DNA from: Zootoca vivipara
Lineage: Eukaryota
Direction: 5' to 3'
Assembly: GCF_963506605.1 (NCBI RefSeq)
Contig: NC_083279.1
Span: 98,332,001-98,396,000 of the forward strand
DNA: 64,000 nt
The notes below the pieces were generated by a model. It saw nothing but the letters and a program-made list of their open reading frames with translations. It did not search any database and was not told the origin of the DNA. Positions within the stretch are counted from its first letter, which is position 1. The number at the start of each line of letters is the position of its first letter. Below, one piece after another: positions 3,656 to 51,640 of this stretch. A program made the translations under genes and the position numbers.

Positions 3656-3819
3656 CTCATGACTTCTGCCCTCCTGCTCCCCATGCCTAGAATAGCACAC
3701 AAACACGACTCATCCCCTGCTTCCCCTGCTTCTTGAACCAAGCCCTTTTCTGTAAGCTCCATGGCGGCAGGGACCTGGCTATATTTGCCCATGGGAAAAC
3801 TTAATCAGGCATCATGGGA

Positions 3820-4468
3820 CGTTTAGATTTCTAGGCATTGAGTTACAGGAGGATCTGTCCTGGAGTGTTAATACAAGGGGGCTTGTGAATAAGGCGCAGC
3901 AGAGACTGTATTTTTTGAGAATTTTAAGGAAAAACCATCTTCCGCAAAAGCTGCTGCTTTCCTTCTATCACTGTGCCATACAGAGCGTGCTCACGTACGG
4001 TTTATGTGTGTGGTACGGAAGCTGTACTTCTCAGGACAGAGCAGGGCTGTGTAGAATTATTAAAACAGCAGAGAGAATTGTTGGCTGCCCACTCTCCACC
4101 TTAGAACAAATCTATACCACCAGGTGCCATAGAAAAGCGCTAGACATATCAAGAGATCCAACGCACCCTGGTCACCATTTCTTTCAGCTCCTGCTGAAAT
4201 AGATATAGATATAGAACTATGCAGGCAAGAACGAGCCGTCTCAGGAACAGTTTCTTCTCTAGAGTGATTTTGGCCTTACCGTAAATGGAAAGCCTGGACT
4301 TTGAAGTCATCTTATTTTACTTGTTATTTGTATTATATTTACTGTTTTTAATTAGGTTTTTAAATTTTGGATTATGCGGAATGCTTTATCTGAGTGGATG
4401 TAGCAACCGAGTAATTTCGTTGTTCCCGCAAGGGGACAATGACAATAAAGATATCTTATCTTATCTTA
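3820..4468 (+). mobile_element. Rex1/Babar LINE 3' fragment
   Basis: KAQQRLYFLRILRK..FYHCAIQSVLTYGLCVWYGSC..DPTHPGHHFFQLL peptide; tail gacaataaag(atctt)n. Confidence 0.75.
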
Positions 4469-5370: not shown

Positions 5371-5483
5371 TGATTTGTTTTCATTTCTGTTCTTTTGTGG
5401 TGGAAGGAACACTTCCTTCCGGGTTTTCAGAGTTTGAGTACCAAGGTACCACTGCAGTTCTCTCTTTCCCCTCCAGGCTCCTG

Positions 5484-5994
5484 ATGGAGGTCCAGATCCC
5501 GCTTGCTCTCCTACTGGCCGCCTGGAGCTGCTCCTTCCCCTCCTCCTGCTCCTCCTCCTCGCCCTCCTTCACCCACCAGCTGGCGCAACTGAGCAGCCGC
5601 CGCAGCAGCTGCAAGCCCGTGCCCAGCAGCATGAGCCTGTGCCACGGCGTGGGCTACAGTGAGATGCGCTTGCCCAACCTCCTGGGCCACGAGACCATGA
5701 AGGAGGCGCTGCAGCAGGCCGCCTCCTGGGTGCCCCTCCTCACCAAGCAGTGCCACCGAGACACCAAGAAGTTCCTCTGCTCCCTCTTCGCCCCCGTCTG
5801 CATCAGCGAGCTGGACGAGCCTATCTTCCCCTGCCGCTCCCTCTGCGAGGCCGTCCGGGACGGCTGCACGCCCGTCATGGCTGCCTTTGGCTTCCCCTGG
5901 CCGGAGATGCTCAACTGCAGCCGGTTCCCCCGGGGGAACGAGCTCTGCGTCCCGCCGGCTGGCCCGGATGACAGGGTGCAGATCCCCAAAGAAG
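5484..5994 (+). CDS. Secreted frizzled-related protein 2-like, coding exon 1 (signal peptide + Frizzled cysteine-rich domain)
   Basis: Acceptor ctccag|g at 5476/5477, ATG 5484. Hydrophobic leader MEVQIPLALLLAAW, then a 10-Cys CRD (CKPVP..LCHGVGYSEMRLPNLLGHETMKE..CHRDTKKFLCSLFAPVC..PCRSLC..FGFPWPEMLNC..LCVP) closely resembling SFRP2. Donor gaag|gtaggc, phase 1. Confidence 0.93.
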
Positions 5995-6330
5995 GTAGGC
6001 GGGAGGTGAGCGGGGTGGGTGGCTGGGGTGGGAAAGTCCCCAGGGAGGTCCATCCGTGGGTTACAAGCAGCCAGGTCCTCCCTTCCCTCTGAGCTGCCTT
6101 TCCCCCTCATCGCTTCCCTCAGAGAGTCTAACAAGGACTTGGGAGACATGGGTTCGAATCACGCACCCTCCCTCGGCCATGAAGCTCCCTGGGCACCCTT
6201 CGCCAGCTTCTCTCAGCCCAATCTACCTCGCAGGGTTGTTGTTGGGGTTTTAAACGAGGAGGGGGAAGAACTACGGTATGTGCACCACCTTGAGCTCCTT
6301 GGAGAGGAAGGTCGGACATATTATTTCCTT

Positions 6331-6648
6331 AAAGGTAAAGGGACCCCTGACTGTTAGGTCCAGTCACGGACGACTCTGGGGTTGCAGCTCTCATCTCGCT
6401 TTATTGGCCAAGGGAGCTGGCGTACAGCTTCCAGGTCATGTGGCCAGCATGACTAAGCCACTCCTGGCAAACCAGAGCAGCGCACAGAAATGCCGTTTAT
6501 CTTCCCACCGCAGCGGTACCTATTTATCTACTTGCACTTTGGCGTGCTTCCGAGCTGCTAGGTTGGCAGGAGCAGGGACCAAAGCAACGAGAGTTCGACC
6601 TTCTGATCGGCAAGCCCTAGGCTCTGTGGTTTAGACCACAGCACCACC
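6331..6648 (-). mobile_element. Sauria/Squam1 SINE
   Basis: Same consensus as 1077-1437, with an internal deletion. Confidence 0.8.
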
Positions 6649-6943
6649 CTAACCAAGTGCAATAGACAAAACAGAAATGCAGTACATAAAATAAATCAGT
6701 GCGTCAGTGTGACTCAGTCAATTGGTTACCTGCCCTGACAGATATCAGCAGATGTATGCTGTGATTCAATTGGGAAAGGCAGCGTCCATTTCTGGGTACC
6801 TCAGTTTAAGAAGGATGCTGAGAAGCTGGAAGGTGTGCAGAGGAGGGTGACCAAGATGAACCAAGGGCTTCGGGGTACATGCCTGATGAGGAACGGTTGA
6901 AGGAGCTGCGTATATTTAGGGTATATTCCCTTTGCTCCTCCAG

Positions 6944-7021
6944 ACACAGTGTGTGCGGCCTGTCTGCATACTGAGATCGGGGAGAAGGAATTCCTGGAGA
7001 ACGTCTGCAGCCAGGACTTTG
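6944..7021 (+). CDS. SFRP2-like coding exon 2 (start of netrin/NTR domain)
   Basis: ctccag|ac... encodes (D)TVCAACLHTEIGEKEFLENVCSQDF; donor g|gtgagt. 78 nt, phase 1-1, same position and motif (CxxC...C..DF) as SFRP2 exon 2. Confidence 0.9.
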
Positions 7022-7798
7022 GTGAGTCTCTCGTTCTGTGTGTTGGCCGGGGAAAAGTGGTGTTGCATGTCGGGGGGGGGGCAGAATCATGTGAATGGAA
7101 AAACGCCCACAAGTGCAATGTCACTTCCCTCTCTTCTCCTTCAACCCCAAATTACTGGGGGATCCCCAGAAGTAGTTCCTTGGGAGAGAAGGTGGAAGGG
7201 CCATTCATTCATTGCACTCACAAATGTTCTTCAACTGGCGCATTGACTCAGGATATGCTCCCATTACCAATTATTCCGCATCTAATTTTTGAAGCCACAT
7301 TCGCAAGACGTTCGGCAAAATCCATACCAGTTTAGTAGTTTCTTGGCTAGTGCTGCTATTTGATTACAAAACTGGATACGGGGTGAGCCACAATGTGGAC
7401 ACCCTATAACAGCCATTATGCTGGTGCATTTGACAGCTTCGTGAACATCGGGCAGGCAGGGGGAGGTTGCGGGAAAGGCCACCCCAAAAAAGTCCTGCAC
7501 ATTGGTTGAAGGCATACCCCTCCCCCCTTCTGATTTGAACCGCCCTGAGATCTTTAGATGGCTGGTAGTATATAAATTTGATTGATAAATAAATAACAGA
7601 AAACACCTCTCTGTGCAAATGCAGCTTGCAAAGCAACAGTGGATGGAATGATATTGCCGTGTTTCAAGCCACGAATGTGAACATAATCAGCAACCTACAA
7701 CCCTGCCTGCCTGCCCCAAATTAGCCGTGGCTCGTGCATTGCGGGGGTTGGACTAAATGACCCTTGGGTCCCTCCCAACCTTGTAATTCTATGAGGAG

Positions 7799-8465
7799 CA
7801 GTGCCGGATTTACGTATAAGCTAAACAAGCTATAGCTTAGGGCCCCACTCTCTTGGGGCCCCCCCCAAATTTTAAAAGGATGTACATTTCCAAAATATAA
7901 GATTAAAAAACAAATAAAATAAAAGCTACGCACAGCAACAGTGTTTTGTGTTGCGTAGGCTCCTAGGATGTGAGTCATGCTAGCCTGCTCCCTAAAATAT
8001 CACTGGTTTGCTCATTTCTATATATAGAGTGCCTACATTCTGCTATTTATAATTATTAGTAGTTTGCATCATATATTTACACCTATTATTATTTCATGTT
8101 ATAGAAAGTTTCTAGAGACTAGTCTTTGTAAATTGCGTTTCTAAAGGAACTTTTGTTGTTGCCAAATGCCAATGTGTTGGCATTCTTAAGTTTGTTATGA
8201 ATAAAAAATCATTTAAAGTTAGAGCTTAATAATTATTTCACTATTAATGTACTTCTTCTTAACTGTAATGCAGTTCAACAATTACTTTGATAAAATACAT
8301 ATTATGTTATGTGCAAATGACTTTAGATACCTATTAGGTCCATAGCATATTCAACACACACAAAAAAGCAGCGACCATTTGCTGTTGACAAAGGACAGCT
8401 GGACATATAAAGGACCCCATTACCTTCAGTAGCTCAGGGCCTCCTCAGACCTAAATCCGGCCCTC
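7799..8465. mobile_element. Non-autonomous hAT element
   Basis: TIRs cagtgccggattta / taaatccggccctc; perfect 8-bp TSD atgaggag (7791-7798, 8466-8473). Confidence 0.85.
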
Positions 8466-8656
8466 ATGAGGAGGCATACGGAGGTGGGGGGGGGGTCCTA
8501 GCCAATGGTGACCAGAAACGCCACAGGAATTGCTGGGGCAACCCTTGACGGCAGGGAGCGAGGTGGGCAAAACAGGAGGCGGAAAACCCCCCGACTTGCA
8601 GAGGAGACTTCCCATTAACCCTGTCCCTCCCCCCTGCGTCTCCCTGTCTCCCACAG

Positions 8657-8967
8657 CCTTAAAAATGAGCATCAAATCTTCATCTGCCATCGACGGGGAC
8701 CTCCAGCTGATCCCTGAGCTCCGGGGACGCACCCTTTACAGGCAGGACGGCTGGTCAGAGGAAGAGCGGAAGAGGCCGGTTCTGTGGCTGACTGGCGGAG
8801 AGGCTTGCTCCTGCGAGGAAGTGGCAGCGGCAGGCCCTGGGTCCGTGGTCCTTGCCATGGGGCACAGGGTAGCTGGCCGGCTCGTCCTGTCCTGGGTCAG
8901 GAGGTGGCGGCGGGGGGAGAAGGAGCTGAAGAAGTTCACCCGGGCCGTGCGGAAAATGCAGTGTTAA
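8657..8967 (+). CDS. SFRP2-like coding exon 3 (NTR domain, stop)
   Basis: cccacag|cc; (A)LKMSIK...RTLYRQDGWSEEERKRPVLWL..ACSCEE...RRWRRGEKELKKFTRAVRKMQC* parallels the SFRP2 C-terminus (..KKSVLWL..CTCEE..KRWQKGQREFKRISRSIRKLQC). Spliced CDS 900 nt = 299 aa. Confidence 0.92.
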
Positions 8968-9506: not shown

Positions 9507-9512
9507 AATAAA
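9507..9512 (+). terminator. Probable poly(A) signal of the SFRP2-like gene
   Basis: First AATAAA downstream of the stop codon, followed by GT-rich sequence. Confidence 0.55.
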
Positions 9513-13586: not shown

Positions 13587-13848
13587 ATGGTCTCCCCGGC
13601 TATTGCGCTGGCGTTCATCCCTTTCGTGGTGACCCTGCTCATCCGCTACCGGCACTACTTCTGCCTCTTTTACCGGGCAGTGTTGGTGCGGCGGCTGCGA
13701 GACTACCTAACGGGCATCCCCAAGGAAGAGAGGGCCTTCCAGTACGTCCTGACCCACACCATCCCAGGAGACCCCCAGCATATCTTGGAGACCTTTGACC
13801 ACTGGAGCTACCACTGCGAGTATCTCAGCAACCTGGGACCCCAGAAAG
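13587..13848 (+). CDS. TOMT: Transmembrane O-methyltransferase, coding exon 1
   Basis: Acceptor cccacag|g at 13550/13551, Kozak gcc[34 protein letters not shown]...[38 protein letters not shown] matches the TOMT/COMT2 N-terminus. Donor g|gtgtgc. Confidence 0.95.
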
Positions 13849-14545
13849 GTGTGCGATGGGGACGGGGGAATGTCCCTGTTTCCATCGGAGAAATGTTGGA
13901 GGGGATGGAATAATAGGATGTCCCTGTTTTCACCAGAGAAATGTTGGATGGGGTGGGAATGCAGTGAGGAATCCCGGATCTGTTGGTTTCCCATTTGTCT
14001 TTGTTTCTTTCTGAACAACCTGCCCCGTGTTGAAGGCCTGAGACACGAGGCGATTGCCTTGGCCCCTTGACTCAATCAAGTGGCGGGGAGTTCCAGGGAA
14101 TGGGCTCTTCTTAGGTCTAACTGTAGTGAGAGGGAGAGCGCACACTGGTAAGGACATAGGGAGAGCCGTATTAGATCAGGCCAAAGGTCCCATCCTGCAT
14201 TGCAGAGGGTTGGGCTAGATGACCCTTGGTGTCCCTTCCAACTCAACCATTCTGTGGTTCCTCCTGTTCTCCCAGTGGCCATTTGGATGCCCTGGGGAAG
14301 CCTGCAAGCAGGACAGGGGGGCAACAGTGCCCTCCCCTCCTGTGATTCCCAACAACTGGTATTCAGAGGCACAACAGCAGAGAAAGAAAATAGCCACTGT
14401 GTCTAGCAACTGTCTCCTCCGTGAATTTGTCTAATCTTCTTTTAAAGCCATGAAAGCTGTTGGCCCTCACTGCCTCCTGGGGGAGAGAATTCTGTAGTTT
14501 TTAAACTTCCTGTTGCCCCTTCAAGATGTTGTTTTATTAGATGTA

Positions 14546-14789
14546 CCGTATTGGCCCGAATATAAGCCGCACCCAAATATAAGTTGGACCTTTAAAATTC
14601 AAGGGGGGGGGGAGAAAAAAAGACAATACCAGAATATAAGCCGCTCCCTTTTCATTTTACCGCATGTCTGTTTCAGCAGCGATATCGTAAAAGCCCATTT
14701 TGTAAGGTCGCAAATTTAAGCCGCAATGTAACTTTTCAGTCATAATTTGGAGTGGAAAAACGGTGAGGCTTATATTCAGGCCAATACGA
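14546..14789. mobile_element. Tc1/mariner-superfamily (Tc2/pogo-like) MITE
   Basis: TA-flanked TIRs ccgtattggcccgaatataagcc / ggcttatattcaggccaatacg. Confidence 0.75.
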
Positions 14790-14982
14790 TATATCTACAC
14801 ATTCAGAAGCAGATCATAGTGGAAGCAATCAAATTTCTAAAGCAGGCAGCAAAACTGCTGATCCCAAATCTGAGTTTTTTATTTATAGCCGTGGCTGTTT
14901 TTTGTGGTTTTAGTCTATAATTTTGTACTATTGTCAGTTGTGATAATCAGTAACCTGCCCTGGAAGTATTTGGTGAAGGGCA

Positions 14983-15329
14983 AGTGGCGCTGTGGTTAAA
15001 CCACTGAGCCTAGGGCTTGCTGATCAGAAGGTCGGCGGTTCGAATCCCTGCAACGGGGTGAGCTCCCGTTGCTCGGTCCCAGCTCCTGCCCACCTAGCAA
15101 TTCGAAAGCACCTCAAAGTGCAAGTAGATAAATAGGAACCGCTACAGCGGGAAGGTAAACGGCGTTTCTGTGCGCTGCTCTGGTTTGCCAGAAGCGGCTT
15201 TGTCATGCTGGCCACATGACCTGGAAGCTATACGCCGGCTCCCTCGGCCAATAATGCGAGATGAGCGCGCAACCCCAGAGTCGGTCACGACTGGACCTAA
15301 TGGTCAGGGGTCCCTTTACCTTTACCTTT
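14983..15329 (+). mobile_element. Sauria/Squam1 SINE
   Basis: Full consensus with tttacctttacc tail. Confidence 0.85.
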
Positions 15330-15471
15330 TAAGCTAGAAGCACAAACAGCAAATAGATAAGGCCAGGTCACACTATCCCTCTTTCTTTCTGCCTATTTAA
15401 ACTGCTCCAGACCGCCTCTGCTAGAAGGCTGTGCCAAAGACTAGAGAGACCGCAGCAGCAATTAAGGAATG

Positions 15472-15612
15472 TAGAACCACAGAATTGTAGAGTTGGAAGG
15501 CACATCGAGGGTCATCCAGTCCAACCCCCTGCATTGCAGGAATCTTCTGTCCACAGCTCAAACAACCAACCTTGTGGTTTACAGACAGACTCAAGATGCT
15601 TTAACCCTGCTG
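15472..15612 (-). mobile_element. SINE with tRNA-Asn-like head and CR1 3' tail
   Basis: Reverse complement gtctgtaaaccacaaggttggttgtttgagc matches the recalled tRNA-Asn arm GGCTGTTAACCGAAAGGTTGGTGGTTCGAGC at 25/31, followed by ttcctgcaatgcagggggttggact...ccaactctacaattct. Confidence 0.5.
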
Positions 15613-15798
15613 AATGAAGAAAAAAAATATGATAGGTTCATTTACAGTAATCAAGTCAGACGCCTGTGTGCCAGTTATTCAAAACAACCTGGTTTCAATG
15701 ACCTTCTAAGCTCACCATCTCTTTTAGTTATTCACTTTGAAACATCTTTTAGCCCTGATGCACCTGGGCTGTTTTTTAGGGCTGCTTATTTGCACTAA

Positions 15799-16160
15799 TG
15801 GACGCTGGTGGCTCTGTGGTCTAAACCACAGAGCCTAGGGCTTGTCGATCAGAAGGTCGGCGGTTCGAATCTCCGCAACGGGGTGAGCTCCCATTGCTCG
15901 GTCCCAGCTCCTGCCAACGTAGCAGTTTGAAAGCATGTCAAAGATCAAGGACATAAATAGGTACTGCTACAGCGGGAAGGTAAACGGCATTTCCGTGTGC
16001 TGTTCTGGTTCACCAGAAGTGGCTTAGTCATGCTGGCCACATGACCCAGAAGCTGTCTGTGGACAAATGCTGGCTCCCTCAGCCTATAGAGCGAGATGAG
16101 CGCCGCAACCCCAGAGTCGGACACGACTGGACCTGATGGTCAGGGGCCCCTTTACCTTTA
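15799..16160 (+). mobile_element. Sauria/Squam1 SINE
   Basis: Full consensus. Confidence 0.85.
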
Positions 16161-17151
16161 CTTGCATTAATTTGCATTATAATTATTATTACGTTATATT
16201 TCCCCCTTCTGCTGCAAGACACTCAATATACAATTGTAAAAGCGAGCTGTAGGGGTCAGTGGCCTCTGGTCCCGGGTGTTCCCTCACAATTTATTGCAGC
16301 TTTCAAACTCACCAGGAATTGGTTGGTTTTCAAAGGACGACGTTTCAAAGCGTTTAAGTGAAGCAACATTCACGAAAGAGGCACAGCGGAATCGATTCCA
16401 CCCCCTCCCCGAGGGCCCACCCCACAGCCAACACAAGCAAAGAATCATGTAATAGACTTTTGGGTGCTTTGCGCCAGTTTCTGGTCGGGGAGCCAGCAGT
16501 GCAGCTGTGAATAGTGTTGAGCCCTGTTGCATTGGCAGCTGGCACACTGAAGCTGCCTGCGAACCGGGTTTCAGCGCCTTGGCGCATCCCAACATGGCTT
16601 AGAATTGTAGAGTTGGAAGGGATCATGTAGTCCGAGCCCCCCTTGCGGGGATTGAACCTGCAACCTGGGCGTTATCAGCACCACGCTCCAGCCAGCTAGG
16701 ATCGCCTCTGAGCACGGGCAGAGAGTCTTTACCTCTGGCACGGAGTAACCACAACACAAGTCTTGGGCTTGGAGCCAGAGGGTCACATTTCTGCCTTGAT
16801 CCAGGCAGGAGACAGGGCTCCCTAAGGCCAGCCAGCCAAAAATAGCAGGTCCCAAATAGCTTCTACAGCTGTACAAGCAGCATGAGACTTTAGCCCTCGG
16901 ACTGCGAAGGCAGCGGCTATTCGTAGGTGGACTTTTTGGTTTCACAGGCTTCCCCAAGACGGTGCCCTCCTGAGATTTTGGACTCTGGCTCCCAACAGTC
17001 CTGGTCAGCCCCACGGAGGGCACCGTCTTTGAGAACGCTGCCTTAGAACAACCGCCCTTCTGCAGGGAAGAAATTGAGAAGAGGTGGCTGGCTGCTGCGC
17101 ACCCTCGATCCTTCCTCACCCCAAACGCAACATTTATTTGGTGCCTTCTAG

Positions 17152-17348
17152 CCAAGATCCTGGAGCGGCTGATCTACGAGAAGGCCCCCCTCAGAGTCTT
17201 GGAGCTGGGCACCTACTGTGGATATGCCACTATCCTCATCGCACAGCTGTTGCCGCTGGGCGCCCGGTTGTACACCGTGGAGATGGACGACCGCAAAGCG
17301 GCCGTGGCCGAGAAGGTCATCCGCCTCGCTGGCTTCGACGATGACACC
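17152..17348 (+). CDS. TOMT: TOMT coding exon 2 (SAM-binding motif)
   Basis: ttctag|cc; (A)[26 protein letters not shown]...[26 protein letters not shown]; donor acc|gtgagt. Confidence 0.95.
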
Positions 17349-17605
17349 GTGAGTGGCTTGGGCTTCCGCAGCTGCCCTTGCCAAACTGCCGGGGGCAGAG
17401 ATAGAGGCAAAGCGAGGCAGTTGCCTTAGGGTGGCAGGCTCTGGAGAGCTGGCAGATTCACCTCCTGTGCTTGTTTGTGCTTCCTCCGTTCTCTACCGCG
17501 TGTCTGTTGTGCAACCGCTGCCACGGCCAGGCACGTAGCTGCAGCCATGTGGCAGGCAGGCAGGCAGGCAGGCAGAAGAGGACAAGGCGTTTTCTGATTT
17601 GCCCC

Positions 17606-19385
17606 TGCTCCCTTTCCCTTTTGGGGTTTTCCAGAGCCCATGTAGAGTCCTTAAATAGGTTGCCTATCAGTAGGAGGAAATAACAGAGGCCAACCAGAGT
17701 ATATTGAGAAGCAGAGCGACTAGTGCAGCGTTTCTCAACCGCTGTTCCGCGGCACAGTAGTGTGCCGCGAGACGCTGGCTGGTGTGCCGCGACGTGCGGC
17801 GACGAGAAGGGCACTTGTCGCCAGCAATGCACCAGGGTGCCGGGCTGCCAGGGGCGCCGAGCCGCTGCGCCCGCGGCACTTGTCCGGCGCCCGCGGCAGT
17901 TGCGCCCGACTCCCGAGCCGTGCAGCGCCCGAGGCGCCTGTCATCACAGCTGCGCTGTGTGGGAGGGGGCAGGGGCTGACGCTGACGCTCCCGACGTTCG
18001 GGAGTCCTTTGCACATGCGCAAAGCGCAGCTGTGAACTCCGGCGGTTTCTCCCGAACGCCGGGAGTCGTCCGGCATCCTCCAGACGGCCGCAAGGCACCC
18101 GCCGGAGCCCGCACTGTGTGGGAGGGAGCAGGGCTGACGCTCTCATGGTCTCCCGACTCTGCCAGCCAGGTCTCCTTCTCCCGACGTTGGCAGCCCGGCA
18201 CAGCTCACGGGGCGCCCAGGGGCCGTCAAGGCAGGTGCTCGGCTCCCGCCGGCGGCCCTTCTCCCGCCATGGCTGCCGCCGCGCACCTGGCTGGGCTCCA
18301 AGCAGGCGGCCGCGGGGCAGGTGTGTCGCTGGGTCCGCTCCTCCTCCTCCTCCCTCGGCGGGGCTCTGAACTCTGTGTAGGTGTGTTTAAACTTTTATTG
18401 ATGAAAAGTAAACTCTTCAGCATAAGTCTGTCATGATATTAACACGTATTTTCATTTTAGGCAGGCTAAATCATTTCGATTAATGACACAGCACTTCCTG
18501 TCGAGAATCCCAGCAAAACAATTTTGCATAGGTGTACGCCACACATTTCATTAAAGTGCGCATCCAGGGAATTCCCCCCCCCAAAAAACCCATTTATTGA
18601 GTACATAATCATAAAAGGACATCATTTTTATTCATCAAACTAATGAAACAAAAGCTTCACTATTTCTTTTAAATTAACAACCAAACTTTAAAAATACAAT
18701 CTTAAGTGAGACACAAATTACTATCTTTTTGGCAAGTGTTTCTTACAGTCATAATTATATAGTCAATATAGGGCGGCACAGAGTTAAATTTTTTAACTTT
18801 TTAAATGGTGGTGTGCCTCGAGATTTTTTTCATGGAACAAGTGTGCCTTGGCCCAAAAAAGGTTGAGAAACACTGGACTAGTGAACCTGATCTTTATTAA
18901 ACTGTTGCAAGAGGGTCCCCACTCACCACACGCAGGAGGCAAGCTCTTATAGAGAGACATTTGAAATTGCCCCCCCTCCCTGTAGCCCAAGACCTCCCCC
19001 CAAAACATCATACATACATCACAGGAGGAGGTGGGTCTACAGCAGAAATCCTGTCTGCCAGGATACCTGATAATGGTCACTGATTGCTTTACCTGGGCAG
19101 CCTGGCCATTCTTTTGCAATGGTAAATACTTTAGTCCAGGTCACAGACTCACCCTGTTCATACACAAATACCCCATTAAGGCAGGATTTACAAGCAAAAG
19201 GACAATGGGAAGGCTTTCCCCATTTGCCTCCCTTACTGCAGAGGACTTTTTGAGGTCATTGGAAGAGTCAAAATGGCTTCGGGATTGCTGTCCTGTACTA
19301 TTTCAGACACATGGTTCATATATTTAGATACGTGTGCATTTATGAATATTTATTCTATATTTGAGACCTTAAAATTCTCGTAACA
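17606..19385 (-). mobile_element. Solo LTR interrupted by a hAT element (TOMT intron 2)
   Basis: TG...CA ends, 4-bp TSD cccc, AATAAA on the minus strand (~18894). Homologous to 20176-20819 and the 30281-32099 cluster. Confidence 0.7.
17726..18875. mobile_element. 1150-bp non-autonomous hAT element with CpG-rich interior
   Basis: TIRs cagcgtttctcaacc / ggttgagaaacactg; perfect TSD gactagtg (17718-17725, 18876-18883). Confidence 0.9.
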
Positions 19386-19826
19386 CCCCTAACAGCAAAA
19401 CCTGCAGGGCTAGGCCCTGGCCTGGGACACACTCAAGCAGGGGAAACTCGAGCTATCAGAAGGAGAGAGTCACATTCCCAAGAGACAGTAACAGGGAGTA
19501 GAGGCCACTCTGTTGTTGTTTTTGTCAATTTTTTATTAAACTTTAAAATATTTACATATAATTCCCCCCTTTTAAAAACAACAACACAAAGCCCTTTATT
19601 CAAAAGTTACAATACAATGCATTACATTTTCAATCAATTTATTCCCCTCCCCAGACACCAGCTTTTAAGTTTGTTAAGCATTTTCCTTTAAACACGACTC
19701 CCTTGTCCGAGATCCTGCAGAGCAGCTGTGCAGGCAATACTGGGCTAGATGGGCCCCTGGGCAGATTTCTCTGTGGATGGATCCTGGTGGCAGGCTGCCT
19801 CTCTTTCAACCGCTTCTCTCGCGTAG

Positions 19827-20147
19827 GTGGAGCTCATTCGGGGACCCTCGCAGGAAGTCATCCCCCAGCTCAAGGAGAAATACGGGCTCAGCCACGTGGA
19901 TTTCATCTTCATGGACCACTGGAAACGCTGCTACTTGAGGGACCTGCAGCTGCTGGAAGCCCACGACCTCCTCCTGGAAGGGGCCACCGTCGTGGCCGAC
20001 AACATCATCTTCCCCGGCGCGCCTCATTTCCTGCAGTACGTCAAGGCCTGCGGCAAGTACAAGTGGAGGATTCACAGGACCAGTCTGCAGTACTTCCGAG
20101 CCATACCTGACGGCATGGCCCAGCTCACCTGGACGGGTCTGCAATGA
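19827..20147 (+). CDS. TOMT: TOMT coding exon 3
   Basis: gcgtag|gtg; [35 protein letters not shown]...[28 protein letters not shown]. Spliced CDS 780 nt = 259 aa. Confidence 0.95.
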
Positions 20148-23841: not shown

Positions 23842-23908
23842 CACTATGAGAACAAGATGCTGGCCTAGATGGGCCCCTATTGGCCTGATCCAGCAGGCTC
23901 TTCTCAGA

Positions 23909-24401
23909 TGGCTCAGTCAGTAGAGCATGAGACTCTTAATCTCAGGGTCATGGGGTTGAATCCCTCATTGTGCAAATAAAAATTCCTGCATTGCAGGAGT
24001 TGGACTAGATTGTTGTTGTTTAGTCGTGTCCGACTCTTCGTGACCCCATGGACCATAGCACGCCAGGCACTCCTGTCTTGCACTGCCTCCCGCAGTTTGG
24101 TCAAACTCATGTTCGTAGCTTCGAGAACACTGTCCAACCATCTCGTCCTCTGTCGTCCCCTTCTCCTAGCGCCCTCCATCTTTCCCAACATCAGGGTCTT
24201 TTCCAGGGAGTCTTCTCTTCTCATGAGGTGGCCAAAGTATTGGAGCCTCAGCTTCACGATCTGTCCTTCCAGTGAGCACTCGGGGCTGATTTCCTTCAGA
24301 ATGGAGAAGTTTAATCTTCTTGCAGTCCATGGGACTCTCAAGAGTCTCCTCCAGCACCAGAATTCAAGACTAGATTGGTCCCTTCCAATTCTATGATTCT
24401 A
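23909..24401 (+). mobile_element. tRNA-Lys(CTT)-headed SINE with CR1 tail, split by a Bov-B insertion (24013-24367, minus)
   Basis: gctcagtcagtagagcatgagactcttaatctcagggtc resembles tRNA-Lys-CTT. Bov-B flanked by 10-bp TSD gactagattg (24003-24012, 24368-24377). Confidence 0.8.
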
Positions 24402-26741: not shown

Positions 26742-26932
26742 GTTTAAAGGACCACCAGAGTCATCCAGTCCAACCAATCACAGCTCAAGAATCCCCGACA
26801 GGAGAGGCCACCACTTTTGAACAGCTCTTACTGTCAGAAAGTTCTTCCTAATGTATGGCTGGCTCCATCTGACAGCCCTGCTCCTTCCTCTTCTTTATTC
26901 CCAAAGCCCCCTCTGCTCCTTGCATGGCTCAC

Positions 26933-27052
26933 CCAGGCCTGATGCTGCTGCTCTTGCTGCTGAAGCTCATTCTCATCCACACATGGCCGGTCCAGGTTAA
27001 ACCACAGCGCCTCAGTGACTCGTGGGAAGAGGGAAGGAAAGAGCGTGGACAT
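26933..27052 (-). CDS. ANAPC15: Anaphase-promoting complex subunit 15, coding exon 1
   Basis: [40 protein letters not shown]. Acceptor 6 nt upstream of the ATG; donor tgg|gtgagc. Confidence 0.96.
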
Positions 27053-27339
27053 GTCTTCCTGAGGGATTGGGAGAAGAAAAATGGTTGGAATGAAAAGCAC
27101 TATAGTCAGCTATGAGACTGTAAAGGACAGAGGCAGGTCTGAACCTCTGTCCCCAAAGAATGATCCTCCACTCATCCGCCGCACAGCCCATGAAACCCAA
27201 ACCATCACCACATTGTACCAAGGGATCCCAGGCACAGGCAGTACCCAACACATGGTCTTCAGCAAACACAAGATGAGAAACAAATAAAAATAATCTTCTT
27301 TCTCCTATCAAAAAATGCAAGAAGGGCTTTTACACTCGC

Positions 27340-38000: not shown

Positions 38001-38384
<384 letters not shown>

Positions 38385-38876
38385 ATATATATGACTTTTG
38401 ACATGATTGAGAATCGCACAGCCAGGGCCGGAGAACTTTAAAGTGGTAAAATTGGAATGTGGAAAATAGGAGCACAACAGAAGGCAGGGACGAAATAGGG
38501 AAGATATTCTTCAAGAGGTCCAGACTATGGGAAGCCCAGAAAAAAAATCAATAATTAATGATTTGGATTACAATTTGGTTTTTTTAAATTTTAGTTTATT
38601 GTTTTTAATTGGATTATGATTTCATGTTAATTGGCTGTTTTTATTGGAAAATTAATAAAAATGATTAAAACAAACAAACAAGGTGGGCTTAGGGGAGCCT
38701 CAGCCTTTCACCTGTGTACATCTACCCCCCCACGCTCCCCTAAAAGAGAACCAGACCGAAATTGCTGGACTTTGGGTGCCCCATGTTCTTTCGTGTCTAG
38801 AGAAAGGAATTGCAGTAGTGGTTCTCGGACCTGTCCGGGCCACCCCACCTTGGTTCCACAAACTCATCCCCCTACT

Positions 38877-39237
38877 CTGGAGAAGAGAAGGTTAAGGGGT
38901 GATATGATAGCCATGTTCAAATATATAAAAGGATGTCATATAGAAGAGGGGAAAAGGTTGTTTTCTGCTGCTCCAGAGAAGTGGGCACGGAGCAATGGAT
39001 TCAAACTACAAGAAAGAAGATTCCATCTAAACATTAGGAAGAACTTCCTGACAGTAAGAGCTGTTCGGCAGTGGAATTTGCTACCAAGGAGTGTGGTGGA
39101 GTCTCCTTCTTTGGAGGTCTTTAAGCAGAGGCTTGACAGCCATATGTCAAGAATGCTTTGATGGTGTTTCCTGCTTGGCAGGGGGTTGGACTGGATGGCC
39201 CTTGTGGTCTCTTCCAACTCTATGATTCTAGGATTCT
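38877..39237 (+). mobile_element. Young CR1 3' fragment
   Basis: [19 protein letters not shown]...; (ATTCTATG)-type tail. Confidence 0.9.
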
Positions 39238-39778
39238 ACTCTATAGAATGCGTTATTCAGAATAATGGTTTGCATGACCCACTAGGGAAGGCAGTAACAT
39301 GAAAAAATGCAAAACCGTAAGAATTAATAGTGCATTTATTCAAAATCCAGTTAAAATTATTTAGTTAATTCAATTTGTTTTAAATATAACTTTTATTCTC
39401 CAAAGCTATTTCAAAGCATTGACCATCAGTTTTTCTTTAACATACGTAGTTTCTTCCTGACTTTCTACCCTTCCTTTCCATTAGTTGTCTTATAACACGT
39501 TTCTATTGTCTAAACCCCAATATCATTGGTTCTTTCAATGATCCACTGCTTATACTTCAGATCCTGCCTTTGACTTCATATATGGGTGATAGTTTGATAC
39601 TTAATCCATCAATGGTCCCCATACCTCCTTAAACAGTTCGTCCTTATGAAAGCTGGAGGCAGAGACCTGCATGCTCCGTGCTGGATCCAAAGCTGTGGTG
39701 AATGGAGAAGCAAGACATGTTGAGGTCTTAGTGCTGTGAGCCCCTCCCACCTCGTGCCCAGGTTGTATACCTGTGTAA

Positions 39779-40174
<396 letters not shown>

Positions 40175-40232
40175 TGAGCAATAGCTTCCTGGTGCTTCTG
40201 CCTCCTATGGGAGATTGAAGGAAGGGAGATAC

Positions 40233-40628
40233 AGCACCCTAGGCTAAATCACCTTCTGACGCCTCTCCCCGGCACATGCGTCATGACGTGTGCGTCGTGC
40301 GTCATGACGCACGCATCATGACGCGTGCACAACGCCGCTGACGCCGCTGCGTCCCCTCCATAGGCGGGAGGGCGCTGAGCTCTCATTTTGGCTCGCGCGC
40401 CTCCCGCCTATGGAGGGGACGCTGTGAGCTCTTCAGCGGCCGCGGCAGCGAACGTCGGCGTCGGCAGCAACAGCGCCCATAGCTGAAGGCTTCAGCTACT
40501 GGCGCTGCCACCGCTCGCTCGTTGCTCCCGGTGCTGTCGGGAGCGCGGCGGGCCGGCTCGACAGCGCCCCCTCCATTTCGGCGCCCTAGGCCATGGCCTA
40601 GTTTGCCTAAATGGAGGTGCCGGCCCTG
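40233..40628. mobile_element. CpG-rich hAT-like element remnant in FOLR intron 3
   Basis: Right end ggcgccctagg..gcctagtttgccta..gccggccctg (CAGGGCCGG-type TIR); left end missing. Confidence 0.55.
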
Positions 40629-41471
40629 GGGAGAGAGTGACATAGTGGCCAAAATAGAGCCGGTTTGCACATAATACCACGGCCCTAGTTTATTTTAAAC
40701 CCAAGGGTGTAGAATTAGAGCAGGTCAGAGGCACAGTTCCTTATCTCCTCCACCCAATCGCAGGGCCAAGTCTGAGAGGTGAGTGGGGCATTGCGTGGCT
40801 CATCCATACGACGAAGCTGAATGCTGGAAGATTCAGGACACATAAAAGGACGGACCTCTTTACACTGTGCATAGTTAAACTGTGGAACTCTCCGCCACAG
40901 GAGGAGGCAGCGGTGGCCTCCAGCTTGGATGGCTTTAAAAGAGAATCGGACAAATTCACGGAGGAGGAGGAGGAGAGGGCTATTGATGGCTCCTAGGCAG
41001 CAGGATGGTTGGGCTCTGCCTCCACAGAGGCTGCAATGCTTCTGAAGCCTGGTTGCTGGGAAGCCCCGGGAGGGCAGCGTAGTTCTTGTGCTTGAATCCT
41101 GCTTGTGGGTTTCGCTTTGGGGCATCCTGTTGGCCACTGTGAGAACAGGATGCTGGCCTAGAGGGGGCCCCCTTTGGCCTGATCCAGCAAGCCCTTGTTA
41201 ATGTTCTTACAGACTTGACAGTCCAGGTGAGTGTGTTTTTGTCTGGCTGTGCACTAAGGGCAACTCTGTTCTAAAAATGAATCATTCAAATCATTTGGCC
41301 CAATTCAAAATTGTGGGTGGTATCCAGACAGGCAATGAATGAATGAATGAATAAGAAGTGTCAATTCAGGGGAAGGGTTTATTCTTAAGGTGGCCATCCT
41401 GGCTGCTAGGGATGCCAACTTGAGGTCTGGTGACTCTCCTCCTTCCTCTGGGACGGGTACCAGCTACCTGA

Positions 41472-41798
<327 letters not shown>

Positions 41799-42548: not shown

Positions 42549-42625
42549 AACCCTAAATACTTGCTTCCCACTATATGAAGAAGGGGAGTGGGTGGCGGAG
42601 AAGTTTATTATCACTTATTAATATT

Positions 42626-44097
42626 GTTGTTGTTTAGTCGTGTCCGACTCTTCGTGACCCCATGGACCAGAGCACGCCAGGCACTCCTGTCTTGCACTGC
42701 CTCCCACAGTTTGGTCAAACTCATGTTCGTAGCTTCGAGAACACTGTCCAACCATCTCGTCCTCTGTCGCCCCCTTCTCCTAGTGCCCTCAATCTTTCCC
42801 AACATCAGGGTCTTTTCCAAGGATTCTTCTCTTCTCATGAGGTGGCCAAAGTATTGGAGCCTCAGCTTCACGATCTGTCCTTCCAGTGAGCACTCAGGGC
42901 TGATTTCCTTAAGAATGGATAGGTTTGATCTTCTAGCAGTCCATGGGACTCTCAAGAGTCTCCTCCAGCACCATAATTCAAAAGCATCAATTCTTCGGCG
43001 ATCAGCTTTCATTATGGTCCAGCTCTCACTTCCATACATCACTACTGGGAAAACCATAGCTTTAACTATACGGACCTTTGTCGGCAAGGTGATGTCTCTG
43101 CTTTTTAAGATGCTGTCTAGGTTTGTCATTGCTTTTCTCCCAAGAAGCAGGCGTCTTTTAATTTCGTGACTGCTGTCACCATCTGCAGTGATCAAGGAGC
43201 CCAAGAAAGTAAAATCTCTCACTGCCTCCATTTCTTCCCCTTCTATTTGCCAGGAGGTGATGGGACCAGTGGCCATGATCTTGGTTTTTTTGATGTTGAG
43301 CTTCAGACCATATTTTGCGCTCTCCTCTTTCACCCTCTTTAAAAGGTTCTTTAATTCCTCCTCGCTTTCTGCCATCAAGGTTGTGTCATCTGCATATCTG
43401 AGGTTGTTGATATTTCTTCCGGCAATCTTAATTCCGGCTTGGGATTCATCTAGTCCAGCCTTTCGCATGATGAATTCTGCATATAAGTTAAATAAGCAGG
43501 GAGACAATATACAACCTTGTCGTACTCCTTTCCCAATTTTGAACCAATCAGTTGTTCCATATCCAGTTCTAACTGTAGCTTCTTGTCCCACATAGAGATT
43601 TCTCAGGAGACAGATGAGGTGATCAGGCACTCCCATTTCTTTAAGAACTTGCCATAGTTTGCTGTGGTCTACACAGTCAAAGGCTTTTGCATAGTCAATG
43701 AAGCAGAAGTAGATGTTTTTCTGGAACTCTCTAGCTTTCTCCATAATCCAGCGCATGTTTGCTATTTGGTCTCTGGTTCCTCTGCCCTTTCGAAATCCAG
43801 CTTGCACTTCTGGGAGTTCTCGGTCCACATACTGCCTCAGCCTGCCTTGTAGAATTTTAAGCATAACCTTGCTAGCGTGTGAAATGAGCGCAATTGTGCG
43901 GTAGTTGGAGCATTCTTTGGCACTGCCCTTCTTTGGAATTGGGATGTAGACTGATCTTCTCCAATCCTCTGGCCATTGCTGAGTTTTCCAAACTTGCTGG
44001 CATATTGGGTGTAGCACCTTAACAGCATCATCTTTTAAAATTTTAAATAGTTCAGCTGGAATATCATCACTTCCACTGGCCTTGTTATTAGCAGTGC
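42626..44097 (-). mobile_element. Bov-B (RTE clade) LINE, 5'-truncated, open RT frame
   Basis: About 490 uninterrupted codons including QAGFRKGRGTRDQI, FIDYAKAFD, GVRQGCILSP and LRYADD; (CAA)n tail; TSD taatatt. Confidence 0.95.
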
Positions 44098-44449
44098 TAA
44101 TATTTCTATTGTTATTTCTAAGGCCCATTTATTAATATTATCCTGCCTTTTTCCTGAGCTAAGACTCAAGGCTTACTCAAATCAAAACGCAGGTAAAATG
44201 CAAAAAGCTAAAATCTTACAGATGATAATACAGAGTAATTAAACTCTAGTAGATTTAAATCAAGGTAGCAATAGATAGTAAAAACAGCACAGTGCTATTT
44301 AAATGCCCTTTTCTTAAAAGCCAGTCCCCCAAAGCCAGTTGGATTAAAAGTCTTCACCTGCCCATGAAAAGACAAGGAAGGAGCCAATTTAGCTTCTCCA
44401 GGGAGGGACTTCCAAAGCTGTCTGGGAGCAGCCACCACTGACAAGGCCC

Positions 44450-48040: not shown

Positions 48041-48614
48041 CACCCTTGTGCAAATTAATCGAAACAAAGCCTGTTTTCTTTCTTTCTTGTAATCCTGTAC
48101 TCAAAAAAAGCACGGAAAGTCAGTTGATCCTTATGGTGTCGGAAGCCTGCAGCCAATAGAAGGAATGATGCGCTCGCCACAATATATTGAGGTTCTACAA
48201 AAGAGAGTTATTCCAGAGCTGGAAAAGAGGTATCCTGACAGTACTACGGTAGGATATTGCAGCAGGACCTAGCCCCTGTCACACATCGAAAGTGGTGAAG
48301 AAGTTCATGTCAGAGCAGCAAATACAGGTACTTGATTGGCCAGGGAATTCCCCGGACGCAAATCCCATTGAGAATTTGTGGGCTATATGTAAAAGTTGCC
48401 TCCGTGCTGTAGACTGTACGACTATGGAGAAGCTTATTCAGGTGCTGATTCAAGTGTGGTACAGGGATCCGAAAATCAACAGTGACTCTTCGAAAAGAGC
48501 AGATTCTATGCCAATACTGCTTAAAAATAGTGGAGGTCATATCCGTTACTAATGTTCGTATATGTGAGCTTTGTACAATAAACTACATTGTTTCAATTAA
48601 TTTGCACAAGGGTG
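48041..48614 (+). mobile_element. Internally deleted Tc1 transposon with transposase C-terminal remnant
   Basis: TA-flanked TIRs cacccttgtgcaaattaat.gaaacaa; peptides QQDLAPCHTS and WPGNSPDANPIENLW (Tc1 DDE motif). Confidence 0.9.
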
Positions 48615-50249: not shown

Positions 50250-51640
50250 GGGCTTTGCCATTCAAAGAGCGTGCGGCGCGTGCACCGCGCCATGTGATCG
50301 GTTCTGCGGGACGGGGCTGCCCTGCCCTGCTCTGCCCTCCCGCAACATTTCACTCAACCCGCCCCCCTCTCCTCCGGGAAGGAGTTTCCACCTTTAGACT
50401 GCGCGCTGCGCCCGAAGGGCTTTCCCCGGAGGCGCCCCGTCCCTTCCGGAGTCCCCCCCCCGGAGCCCCGGCCCGCGAAGTCTCTCCCGCTTCGCTCGCC
50501 CGCTCAGGGTCTCGCCCGGAGACTCCGCCACCGAGCAGGAAGCGCCCGCCGTCCCCCAGGCGGAGAAGGACGGCGACGGGAACCGGCGGGGCCCAGGGCT
50601 CGTCGGAGGAGCCGAATCGGGGCTGCCGCTGGCTTCCCAACTTCTCTCCGTCCCGGTGGGAAGTGGGATCTAACTGGGAGCCGAGGGGCGCCTGCGGGGC
50701 GCGCGCCCTTCCCGTCTCGGCGCGCCCTTCCCCTTCTCCGCGGCTTGGCGGGGACCCGGTCCCTGCTTCGTCGGAGCCCTTTCTTCGCCGCTGCCCGGAG
50801 GAGGAGGAGGCGGAGAAGGAGGCGGAGGCGCCTTTTCCCCGCCTCGAAGGGGCCGCCGAGCAGCGCGCCAAGCGGCTCTCCTCGCCACTGCGCCTCGCCG
50901 GACAAGAAGCGCCACAGGCTCGGGAAGAAGGAGGAAGGAAGGAAGCGAGCGAGCGAGCGAGCGCGGTTTGCTGCCTCTCCGCCCCCGCCGCCCCTACACC
51001 ATCCCCCGTGGGCGCCCCGGGCCAAGAGTCTCCCGCAGCCGCCATGCGCCCCTCGCGGCCCGCCCGTCGGGGGCGCCGCCTCCTCCTCGCCGGGCTCTGC
51101 TAAGCGCCCGCCTCGCTTCCGCCGCTCTGCTCCGGGCATGGCGGGCGCAGCAGGGGCCGCCGCGCTGCAGCCGCCGCCTCCGCCACCTCCCGCGGCCCCG
51201 CCGTCGTGGTACCACAAGGACCTGAGCCGCGCTGCGGCCGAAGAGCTCCTGGCCCGCGCGGGGCGCGACGGCAGCTTCTTGGTGCGCGACAGCGAGAGCG
51301 TGGCCGGAGCCTACGCCCTGTGCGTGCTGTGAGTGGAGGGGCGAAGAAGGGAAGGGAAGGGGCGCGCGGGAGGAAGGGGCGCGTCTCCCCCAAAACCCCG
51401 GGTAGCTTGGAGCAGGGGCGCCAACTTGAACAAAATATTTGATTTTCTTGGGGGGGGCAGGTAAGCCTCACCCCGAGGAATCGATCACCAGGCATGGCGC
51501 ACGCACGCCCTTTGAGTGGCGGTGCCCATCAACTTGGACCCCGCAAATATTTTATTGGGGGCAAGCCGAGGAGTTGGAGACCGGGGGCCGGACGGGTCTC
51601 GCCCATTCTGGCGGCGTGTGCGGTGCTGTGCCGGGACCCC
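50250..51640. promoter_or_regulatory. INPPL1: CpG island / promoter of INPPL1
   Basis: About 1.4 kb of very GC- and CpG-rich sequence surrounding the first coding exon. Confidence 0.85.
51138..51328 (+). CDS. INPPL1: SHIP2 (inositol polyphosphate phosphatase-like 1) coding exon 1, N-terminal part of SH2 domain
   Basis: [64 protein letters not shown]; donor ct|gtgagt, phase 2. Position downstream of FOLR as in human. Exon 2 not found before 64000. Confidence 0.93.

Follow-up and report, generated by a model that had tools for sequence, protein, structure and literature searches.

An intact SFRP2-like gene in the lizard Zootoca vivipara, a probable ohnolog of SFRP2 that appears to have been lost in mammals

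A stretch of 64,000 nucleotides of the genome of the lizard Zootoca vivipara (assembly GCF_963506605.1, contig NC_083279.1, positions 98,332,001 to 98,396,000 of the forward strand, referred to here as the window) includes a gene with a Frizzled domain and an NTR domain, located next to TOMT. We hold with reasonable confidence that this SFRP2-like gene is intact, that it probably arose as an ohnolog of SFRP2 and corresponds to the genes named sfrpx and sfrp2l, and that its predicted product is a secreted protein which binds Wnt through its Frizzled domain. Neither the gene nor its loss is new: RefSeq annotates the gene in Zootoca and many other reptiles, and a 2019 paper reported its loss in birds and mammals under the name sfrpx (PMC6871517). 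The surprise that the first-pass annotation attached to the gene did not survive. The placement as an SFRP2 ohnolog, the link with TOMT, and the copy in a bird were not found in the literature searched, which was mostly outside subscription journals, and it is here that the present analysis makes its modest addition: a case for the ohnolog, an old TOMT link, and one bird record that argues against complete loss in the birds.

The coding sequence is divided among three exons of 511, 78, and 311 nt (Table 1), which join into 900 nt encoding 299 amino acids with no internal stops, and both introns run from GT to AG in phase 1. The frequency of G or C at the third codon position is 0.85. This model, and the 10-cysteine Frizzled cysteine-rich domain (CRD) and six-cysteine NTR domain that the first-pass annotation had read from it, were confirmed, and the spliced product matches the RefSeq protein XP_034972063.1 (“SFRP2-like”, Zootoca vivipara) at 299/299 residues. 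This record is the window gene itself, with no difference, named automatically and with no function attached. Ten cysteines lie in the CRD (residues 43–155), six in the NTR (174, 177, 192, 247, 249, and 299), and two in the N-terminal segment. In the whole protein, Pfam recovers the Frizzled domain at residues 43–151 (E 5e-32) and the NTR at 189–288 (E 3e-6, 27.5 bits against a cut-off of 21.9), while the translation of exon 3 by itself gives an NTR match under the cut-off. The succession of a 10-cysteine CRD and an NTR, both over the Pfam cut-off, places the protein in the SFRP family, and the three coding exons, the unbroken CRD exon, and the CxC of the NTR place it in the SFRP1/2/5 subgroup.

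The hydropathy profile has an N-terminal leader and no long membrane helix, from which secretion is predicted. An AlphaFold model based on a 45-row alignment (mean predicted local distance difference test score, pLDDT, of 84; predicted template-modelling score, pTM, of 0.52) folds into two domains, with a Ser-rich segment left disordered, and at this pTM the angle between the CRD and the NTR is not fixed. The best solved match of the model is Sizzled (5XGP/7EL5, 32–33% identity), followed by the Frizzled CRDs, and the modelled CRD overlays the CRD structures of the FZD receptors at 1.2–2.2 Å in most rows, including the complexes with fatty acid and with Wnt8. A basic C-terminal helix is present, and the NTR is less basic than that of SFRP1.

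The search for CRDs in the Zootoca genome returned 24 matches, five of which are intact relatives of the window gene. These are SFRP2 on contig C9, where a TLR gene is its neighbour, SFRP5 on C5, SFRP1 on C6, a four-exon Sizzled gene on C10 (13.71 Mb), which keeps the CLDTF loop and has Xenopus Sizzled as its best solved match, and a four-exon gene on C2 (20.70 Mb) that groups with Sizzled and which, from this grouping and a motif, we take to be of the Crescent type. Given that these five genes are separate, the window gene, on contig C4, is the sixth member of the set. The identity of its protein over the whole length is 52% to SFRP2, 42% to both SFRP1 and SFRP5, 39% to the Crescent-type protein, and 33% to Sizzled.

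The gene shares with SFRP2 its three coding exons, matching intron phases, a three-residue insertion in the CRD, the CxC of the NTR, and the C-terminus. It differs from SFRP2, to which its protein is 52% identical, in its faster evolution, an N144 sequon characteristic of its clade, YSE in the place of YPN, its position on another contig, and the lack of any mammalian record among those found. The Frizzled and NTR fold is common to Sizzled and Crescent, and the GYSEMR motif is common to Sizzled, so GYSEMRLPNL, which the first-pass annotation had cited as a sign of divergence, does not serve as one. Sizzled and Crescent are, however, separate genes in this genome, with an extra CRD intron, an extra CRD cysteine, and the Asp92 loop, none of which is found in the window gene.

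The possibility that the window gene is the canonical SFRP2 in a new location, or a recent duplicate in the lizards, has next to no probability, even though SFRP2 is its best paralogue and some databases name the orthologues plainly “SFRP2”. The canonical SFRP2 is intact on C9, with an exon 3 that is 98% identical to that of Anolis SFRP2, and it is this gene, and not that of the window, that groups inside SFRP2 and has the TLR neighbour. Both copies are present, in addition, in sharks, coelacanth, lungfish, and amphibians. An approximately unbiased (AU) test rejected the union of the amniote SFRP2-like proteins with amniote SFRP2 (p 2e-8), which, together with the intact C9 gene, rules out a late duplication from amniote SFRP2 or its relocation, and upholds the earlier claim of an extra SFRP2-type paralogue. 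The “SFRP2” label on some reptile and fish records thus covers two genes, and can mislead cross-species work on expression.

The relationships were analyzed in a tree of 61 rows, hand-picked from the collected proteins to span the lineages, and in a tree of 27 rows from which the invertebrate and hagfish rows were left out. In the former, the 27 SFRP2-like rows form a single clade (support 98/90), which includes the fish “SFRP2 like” proteins, as foreseen in the first-pass annotation, with 99/98 for the tetrapod and 100/99 for the bony-vertebrate SFRP2-like nodes. This clade falls, in turn, into a group (98/99) with gnathostome SFRP2, lamprey, hagfish, and two long tunicate rows, and SFRP1/5 and Sizzled/Crescent lie outside it. 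The 27-row tree supports SFRP2 at 100/99 and bony-vertebrate SFRP2-like at 97/94. The union of the window protein with Crescent and Sizzled was rejected by the AU test (p 7e-4). The position of the cyclostome rows and the basal forks are not firm in these trees.

The genomic surroundings suggest an origin for the clade. On C9, an Arfaptin-family gene (39.89 Mb, +) and a multi-exon NHL gene (40.09 Mb, +) are followed by SFRP2 (40.27 Mb, −), and on C4, where the window gene lies at 98.34 Mb (+), there is another Arfaptin-family gene at 102.13 Mb (−) and another multi-exon NHL gene at 102.07 Mb (−). The order and relative orientation of the two pairs are alike; we take the members to be ARFIP1/2 and TRIM2/3, respectively. 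Both families are also present on other contigs, so the paired flanks are supporting evidence rather than proof. These flanks suggest that the window gene is probably an ohnolog of SFRP2 derived from the early vertebrate genome duplications, as the first-pass annotation had raised as a possibility.

A number of observations weigh against this origin. The paralogon consists of two families, which lie 3.7 Mb away from the window gene, and a pattern search near SFRP2 for a third pair, RNF175/RNF121, did not identify it. The support for gnathostome SFRP2 in the 61-row tree is just 77/77, no node with a support of at least 80 unites the two shark SFRP2-like rows with the bony-vertebrate ones in the 27-row tree, and the window protein is about as similar to shark SFRP2 (50–55%) as to shark SFRP2-like (51–56%). 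The AU test also left unrejected an arrangement in which the whole clade is the sister of Sizzled/Crescent (p 0.19). It is conceivable, then, that the gene is an old duplicate, yet not the whole-genome-duplication twin of SFRP2, being either an earlier local duplicate or part of a lineage nearer to Sizzled, Crescent, or tlc. The open basal forks and the shared GYSEMR motif would fit such an origin, which we nevertheless regard as improbable, given that the gene agrees with SFRP2 in its introns, its insertion, and the arrangement of its cysteines, the extra CRD intron is confined in this comparison to Sizzled/Crescent, and two flanking families pair C4 with C9. There is also no named cyclostome match within the SFRP2-like clade of the 61-row tree. 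No tlc-labelled sequence turned up in any of the sequence searches.

The distribution of the gene was traced through three homologue searches of annotated proteins of limited length, with the best 120 of 566, 49 of 49, and best 120 of 476 matches being listed. The matches in the SFRP2-like clade come from sharks, rays, sturgeon, gar, teleosts, coelacanth, and lungfish, and, among the tetrapods, from frogs, salamanders, caecilians, turtles, crocodilians, tuatara, and squamates. The listed matches include no mammalian protein of this clade, and a library of 50% clusters crowded by multi-CRD proteins gave none from either birds or mammals in 19 examined of the best 150 matches, five near matches being without a species. 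From these sequences, the gene appears to have been kept in sharks, fish, amphibians, and reptiles, and lost in mammals.

The sole bird member among the listed matches is a partial protein of the magpie goose, Anseranas semipalmata (NXI62479.1, a cluster of one), which is 74% identical to the crocodile protein and 49% to chicken SFRP2, is rich in G, A, R, and P, and lacks some 12 residues where exon 3 begins. It joins the crocodile in the 27-row tree (90/82) and the long Anolis branch in the 61-row tree (81/91). When this protein was used as the query, the other birds and all the mammals among the matches listed were canonical SFRP2, at 47–48% identity. The membership of the magpie goose protein in the clade weighs against the loss of the gene in all birds, and the protein may represent a relict, a decaying copy, or a sign of GC-rich hidden bird genes.

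The association with TOMT appears to be old. The window gene sits between LAMTOR1 and TOMT, and in sturgeon and paddlefish the SFRP2-like and TOMT records occur on shared contigs, and in three sturgeon sets their accessions follow one another directly. A model of 541 amino acids from Acipenser sinensis has an SFRP2-like portion (1–287) fused to TOMT in the same order as in the lizard, and is probably an annotation merge of two neighbouring genes. This model also draws SFRP2-like and TOMT into a single 90% cluster. The position directly upstream of TOMT is thus established for the window, sturgeon, and paddlefish, and its presence in both these fishes and a lizard makes the link older than the split between the ray-finned and lobe-finned fishes. 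The fish sfrp2l of gar and teleosts belongs to the same clade and differs, in the teleosts, in its long branches and NTR insertions. The human 11q13 block has the same gene order and is not known to include an SFRP.

The sequence evidence strongly favours, without proving, the identity of the window gene with the published sfrpx of Xenopus, represented by NP_001098737 (X. laevis) and NP_001090810 (X. tropicalis), which fall in the same clade as the window protein and are 57–60% identical to it. According to PMC6871517, sfrpx is one of nine genes whose loss is predicted for five birds and six mammals, with platypus, opossum, and human among the latter; the magpie goose protein does not fit a loss in all birds. 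One frame of the forward quantitative PCR primer published there reads SWVRKW, which is found in 25 of the collected proteins, all from the SFRP2-like clade, including X. laevis NP_001098737. Against this identity, the link consists of a six-residue primer match and a database name, and the morpholino, reverse primer, and tag primer given in the same paper have no match among the collected proteins. These oligonucleotides may fall in untranslated sequence, which makes the strength of the knockdown uncertain. Neither the morpholino site nor the tagged test construct at its end, as given there, translates to any of the collected Xenopus proteins of the clade, and the annotated start may escape the block.

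Other records of the gene are brief. In the axolotl, sfrpx is among the cartilage markers (PMC8140481), and in the stickleback Bmp6 raises Sfrp2l together with further Wnt inhibitors (PMC10730089). Sizzled and Crescent were reported as lost in eutherian mammals, in an account whose searched text does not mention the window gene (PMC3296468), and SFRP1/2/5 was described as a vertebrate-expanded subgroup, with the member found here unnamed in the text searched (PMC2453138). Among lamprey clones, one SFRP2 and one SFRP1/5 were reported (PMC2671401). The searched portions of PMC3516229, PMC4669655, PMC12923738, PMC12722812, PMC5826324, and PMC2757023 hold nothing on the ancestry of the gene, and the literature searched contained no study of the ancestry, synteny, or biochemistry of the clade, and no placement of tlc.

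SFRP2-like proteins have changed faster than SFRP2 in 10/10 species pairs (77% versus 93% identity in the turtle, for example, and 57% versus 83% in the coelacanth), and two Anolis orthologues have a long branch, of 1.04 changes per column, far faster than the other squamates in the tree. These rates would suit a gene that is intact but vestigial in the lizards and drifting toward the loss reported in birds and mammals, as would the knockdown of sfrpx in the frog, which had no clear effect on regeneration (PMC6871517), a result that also counts against the role proposed here for the gene. Such a state is very unlikely, however, with the frame being open, 16/16 domain cysteines kept, and the identity to the window protein reaching 92–96% in the lacertids (Lacerta and Podarcis) and 69–84% in most full-length orthologues of other reptiles. 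The same paper also reports that sfrpx mRNA was induced in the frog one day after tail amputation. Three RNA runs of unlabelled tissue (some 6% of each) and one contig set gave no exon depth or exon joints, only intronic repeats. This check covered little of exon 1, and reads of conserved genes may be filtered out beforehand, which makes the result neutral on the expression of the window gene. The repeats concerned (6330–6650 and 7730–8460) have heavy read cover, which comes from other genomic copies.

The CRD and Wnt are a textbook pair. Seven CRD residues, W82, P84, L85, V131, M132, F135, and F137, which we take to form the lipid groove, are invariant in 33/33 orthologues and 8/8 SFRP2 rows. 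The leader would export the protein from the cell, the CRD would hold the lipid of Wnt and compete with the Frizzled receptors, and the NTR and basic C-terminal helix would bind the matrix and set the range of the protein, which would damp or spread Wnt signals according to dose, in large part redundantly with SFRP1, 2, and 5. By analogy with its relatives, it is likely that the protein would be a Wnt modulator redundant with SFRP2, and we infer from the same analogy the role of “Wnt antagonist” proposed earlier. Redundancy and the faster sequence change would, together, explain the loss of the gene in mammals and most birds.

Two points run counter to this role: the literature searched has no Wnt-binding or reporter assay on the clade, and the counterpart of Glu44 of Sizzled is kept, as E60, in 26/33 orthologues. 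The product might instead be mainly a regulator of the BMP1/Tolloid proteases, like Sizzled and Crescent, rather than a Wnt binder. Its Y58-S59-E60 matches Tyr42-Ser43-Glu44 of Sizzled, with no match in SFRP1, 2, or 5 of this genome, it has an acidic insertion loop (SELDE), and SFRP2 and SFRP5 are reported to affect Tolloid (PMC9437010 and PMC3639276), although the reports on SFRP2 and BMP1 conflict. Inhibition of Tolloid by Sizzled requires Glu44, Asp92, and Phe94, according to PMC9437010, and the window protein keeps only the first. Asp92 aligns with S108 (D in 1/33 orthologues), the loop has three more residues, Phe94 is missing, and so is the additional cysteine that the CRDs of Sizzled and Crescent carry. 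Without the Asp92/Phe94 loop, a secreted Wnt binder is the likelier role, and that of a protease regulator is unlikely.

In a broader and speculative scenario, to which we give a low probability, the gene would be the twin that whole-genome duplication gave SFRP2, and would have remained a neighbour of TOMT in lineages from sturgeon to lizard. Mammals and birds would have lost it independently, the birds several times, and it would persist in the magpie goose or lie concealed there as a GC-rich, unannotated gene. With the body of SFRP2 and the Ser-Glu contact of Sizzled, its product might adjust both Wnt and BMP1/Tolloid in the embryos or regenerating tails of reptiles. The gene is one more secreted signalling regulator among the patterning genes lost in mammals (Sizzled, Crescent, ADMP, and Noggin2/4), and is a candidate case for the proposal that warm-blooded animals regenerate less well because of the genes they lost.

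The features of the gene and its neighbours are presented in Table 1. The scan for neighbours covered 300/345 open reading frames (ORFs) of the window, the remainder being 25 that overlap the SFRP2-like gene and 20 at the end of the window.

Table 1. Features of the SFRP2-like gene and of neighbouring genes, in positions of the window.
Feature	Position	Strand	Evidence
Putative splice acceptor for a 5' exon further upstream (pyrimidine tract with a terminal AG, six bases ahead of the ATG)	5458..5477	+	Sequence
Coding exon 1, from the ATG through a hydrophobic leader and a Ser-rich linker to the complete Frizzled CRD	5484..5994	+	Donor G|GTAGG; Fz E 1.6e-32; XP_034972063.1
Predicted signal-peptide region, residues 1-17	5484..5534	+	Hydropathy >1.6 over 3-17; helix 6-13, low pLDDT
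Frizzled CRD, Cys43-Cys155, 10 Cys	5610..5948	+	Pfam; structure overlay
Putative N-glycosylation sequon N144-C-S	5913..5921	+	N in 28/33 orthologues, 0/8 SFRP2 rows
Coding exon 2: start of NTR (CxxC...C)	6944..7021	+	AG|...|GT; position and phase as exon 2 of SFRP1/2/5 in this genome (78-81 nt)
Coding exon 3: NTR with CxC, basic C-terminal helix, TAA	8657..8967	+	Nearest paralogue in the genome SFRP2 exon 3, 41%
Candidate polyadenylation signal, first AATAAA past the stop	9507..9512	+	Sequence
TOMT, three coding exons (13.6, 17.2, 19.8 kb)	13587..20144	+	tblastn with paddlefish TOMT, 62-73%; Pfam Methyltransf_3
ANAPC15 exon	26837..27109	-	Pfam PF15243, E 9e-18
Folate receptor gene, three exons matched	38001..41795	+	Pfam PF03024
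SH2 exon, taken by gene order to be INPPL1	51207..51329	+	Pfam SH2, E 4e-12

LAMTOR1 lies on the opposite (minus) strand, with its start approximately 12.5 kb upstream of the ATG of the window gene. It was located through a motif and then confirmed by Pfam; a genome-wide search with the Pfam family gave no LAMTOR match, and 150 of the 282 upstream ORFs, those scanned, gave nothing over the cut-off. On the same contig, at C4:90.12 Mb, 8 Mb from the window gene, there is a Frizzled receptor gene, presumably FZD4-like. The folate-receptor matches tile a single gene, and the human block carries several. A tRNA-Lys(CTT) gene is located at 23901–23975, between TOMT and ANAPC15. Three further matches are probably pieces of mobile elements, these being one of the ALKBH8_N type at 3756–4199 (+), a reverse-transcriptase ORF of 505 amino acids at 42614–44128 (−), and a DDE transposase fragment at 48253–48549 (+).

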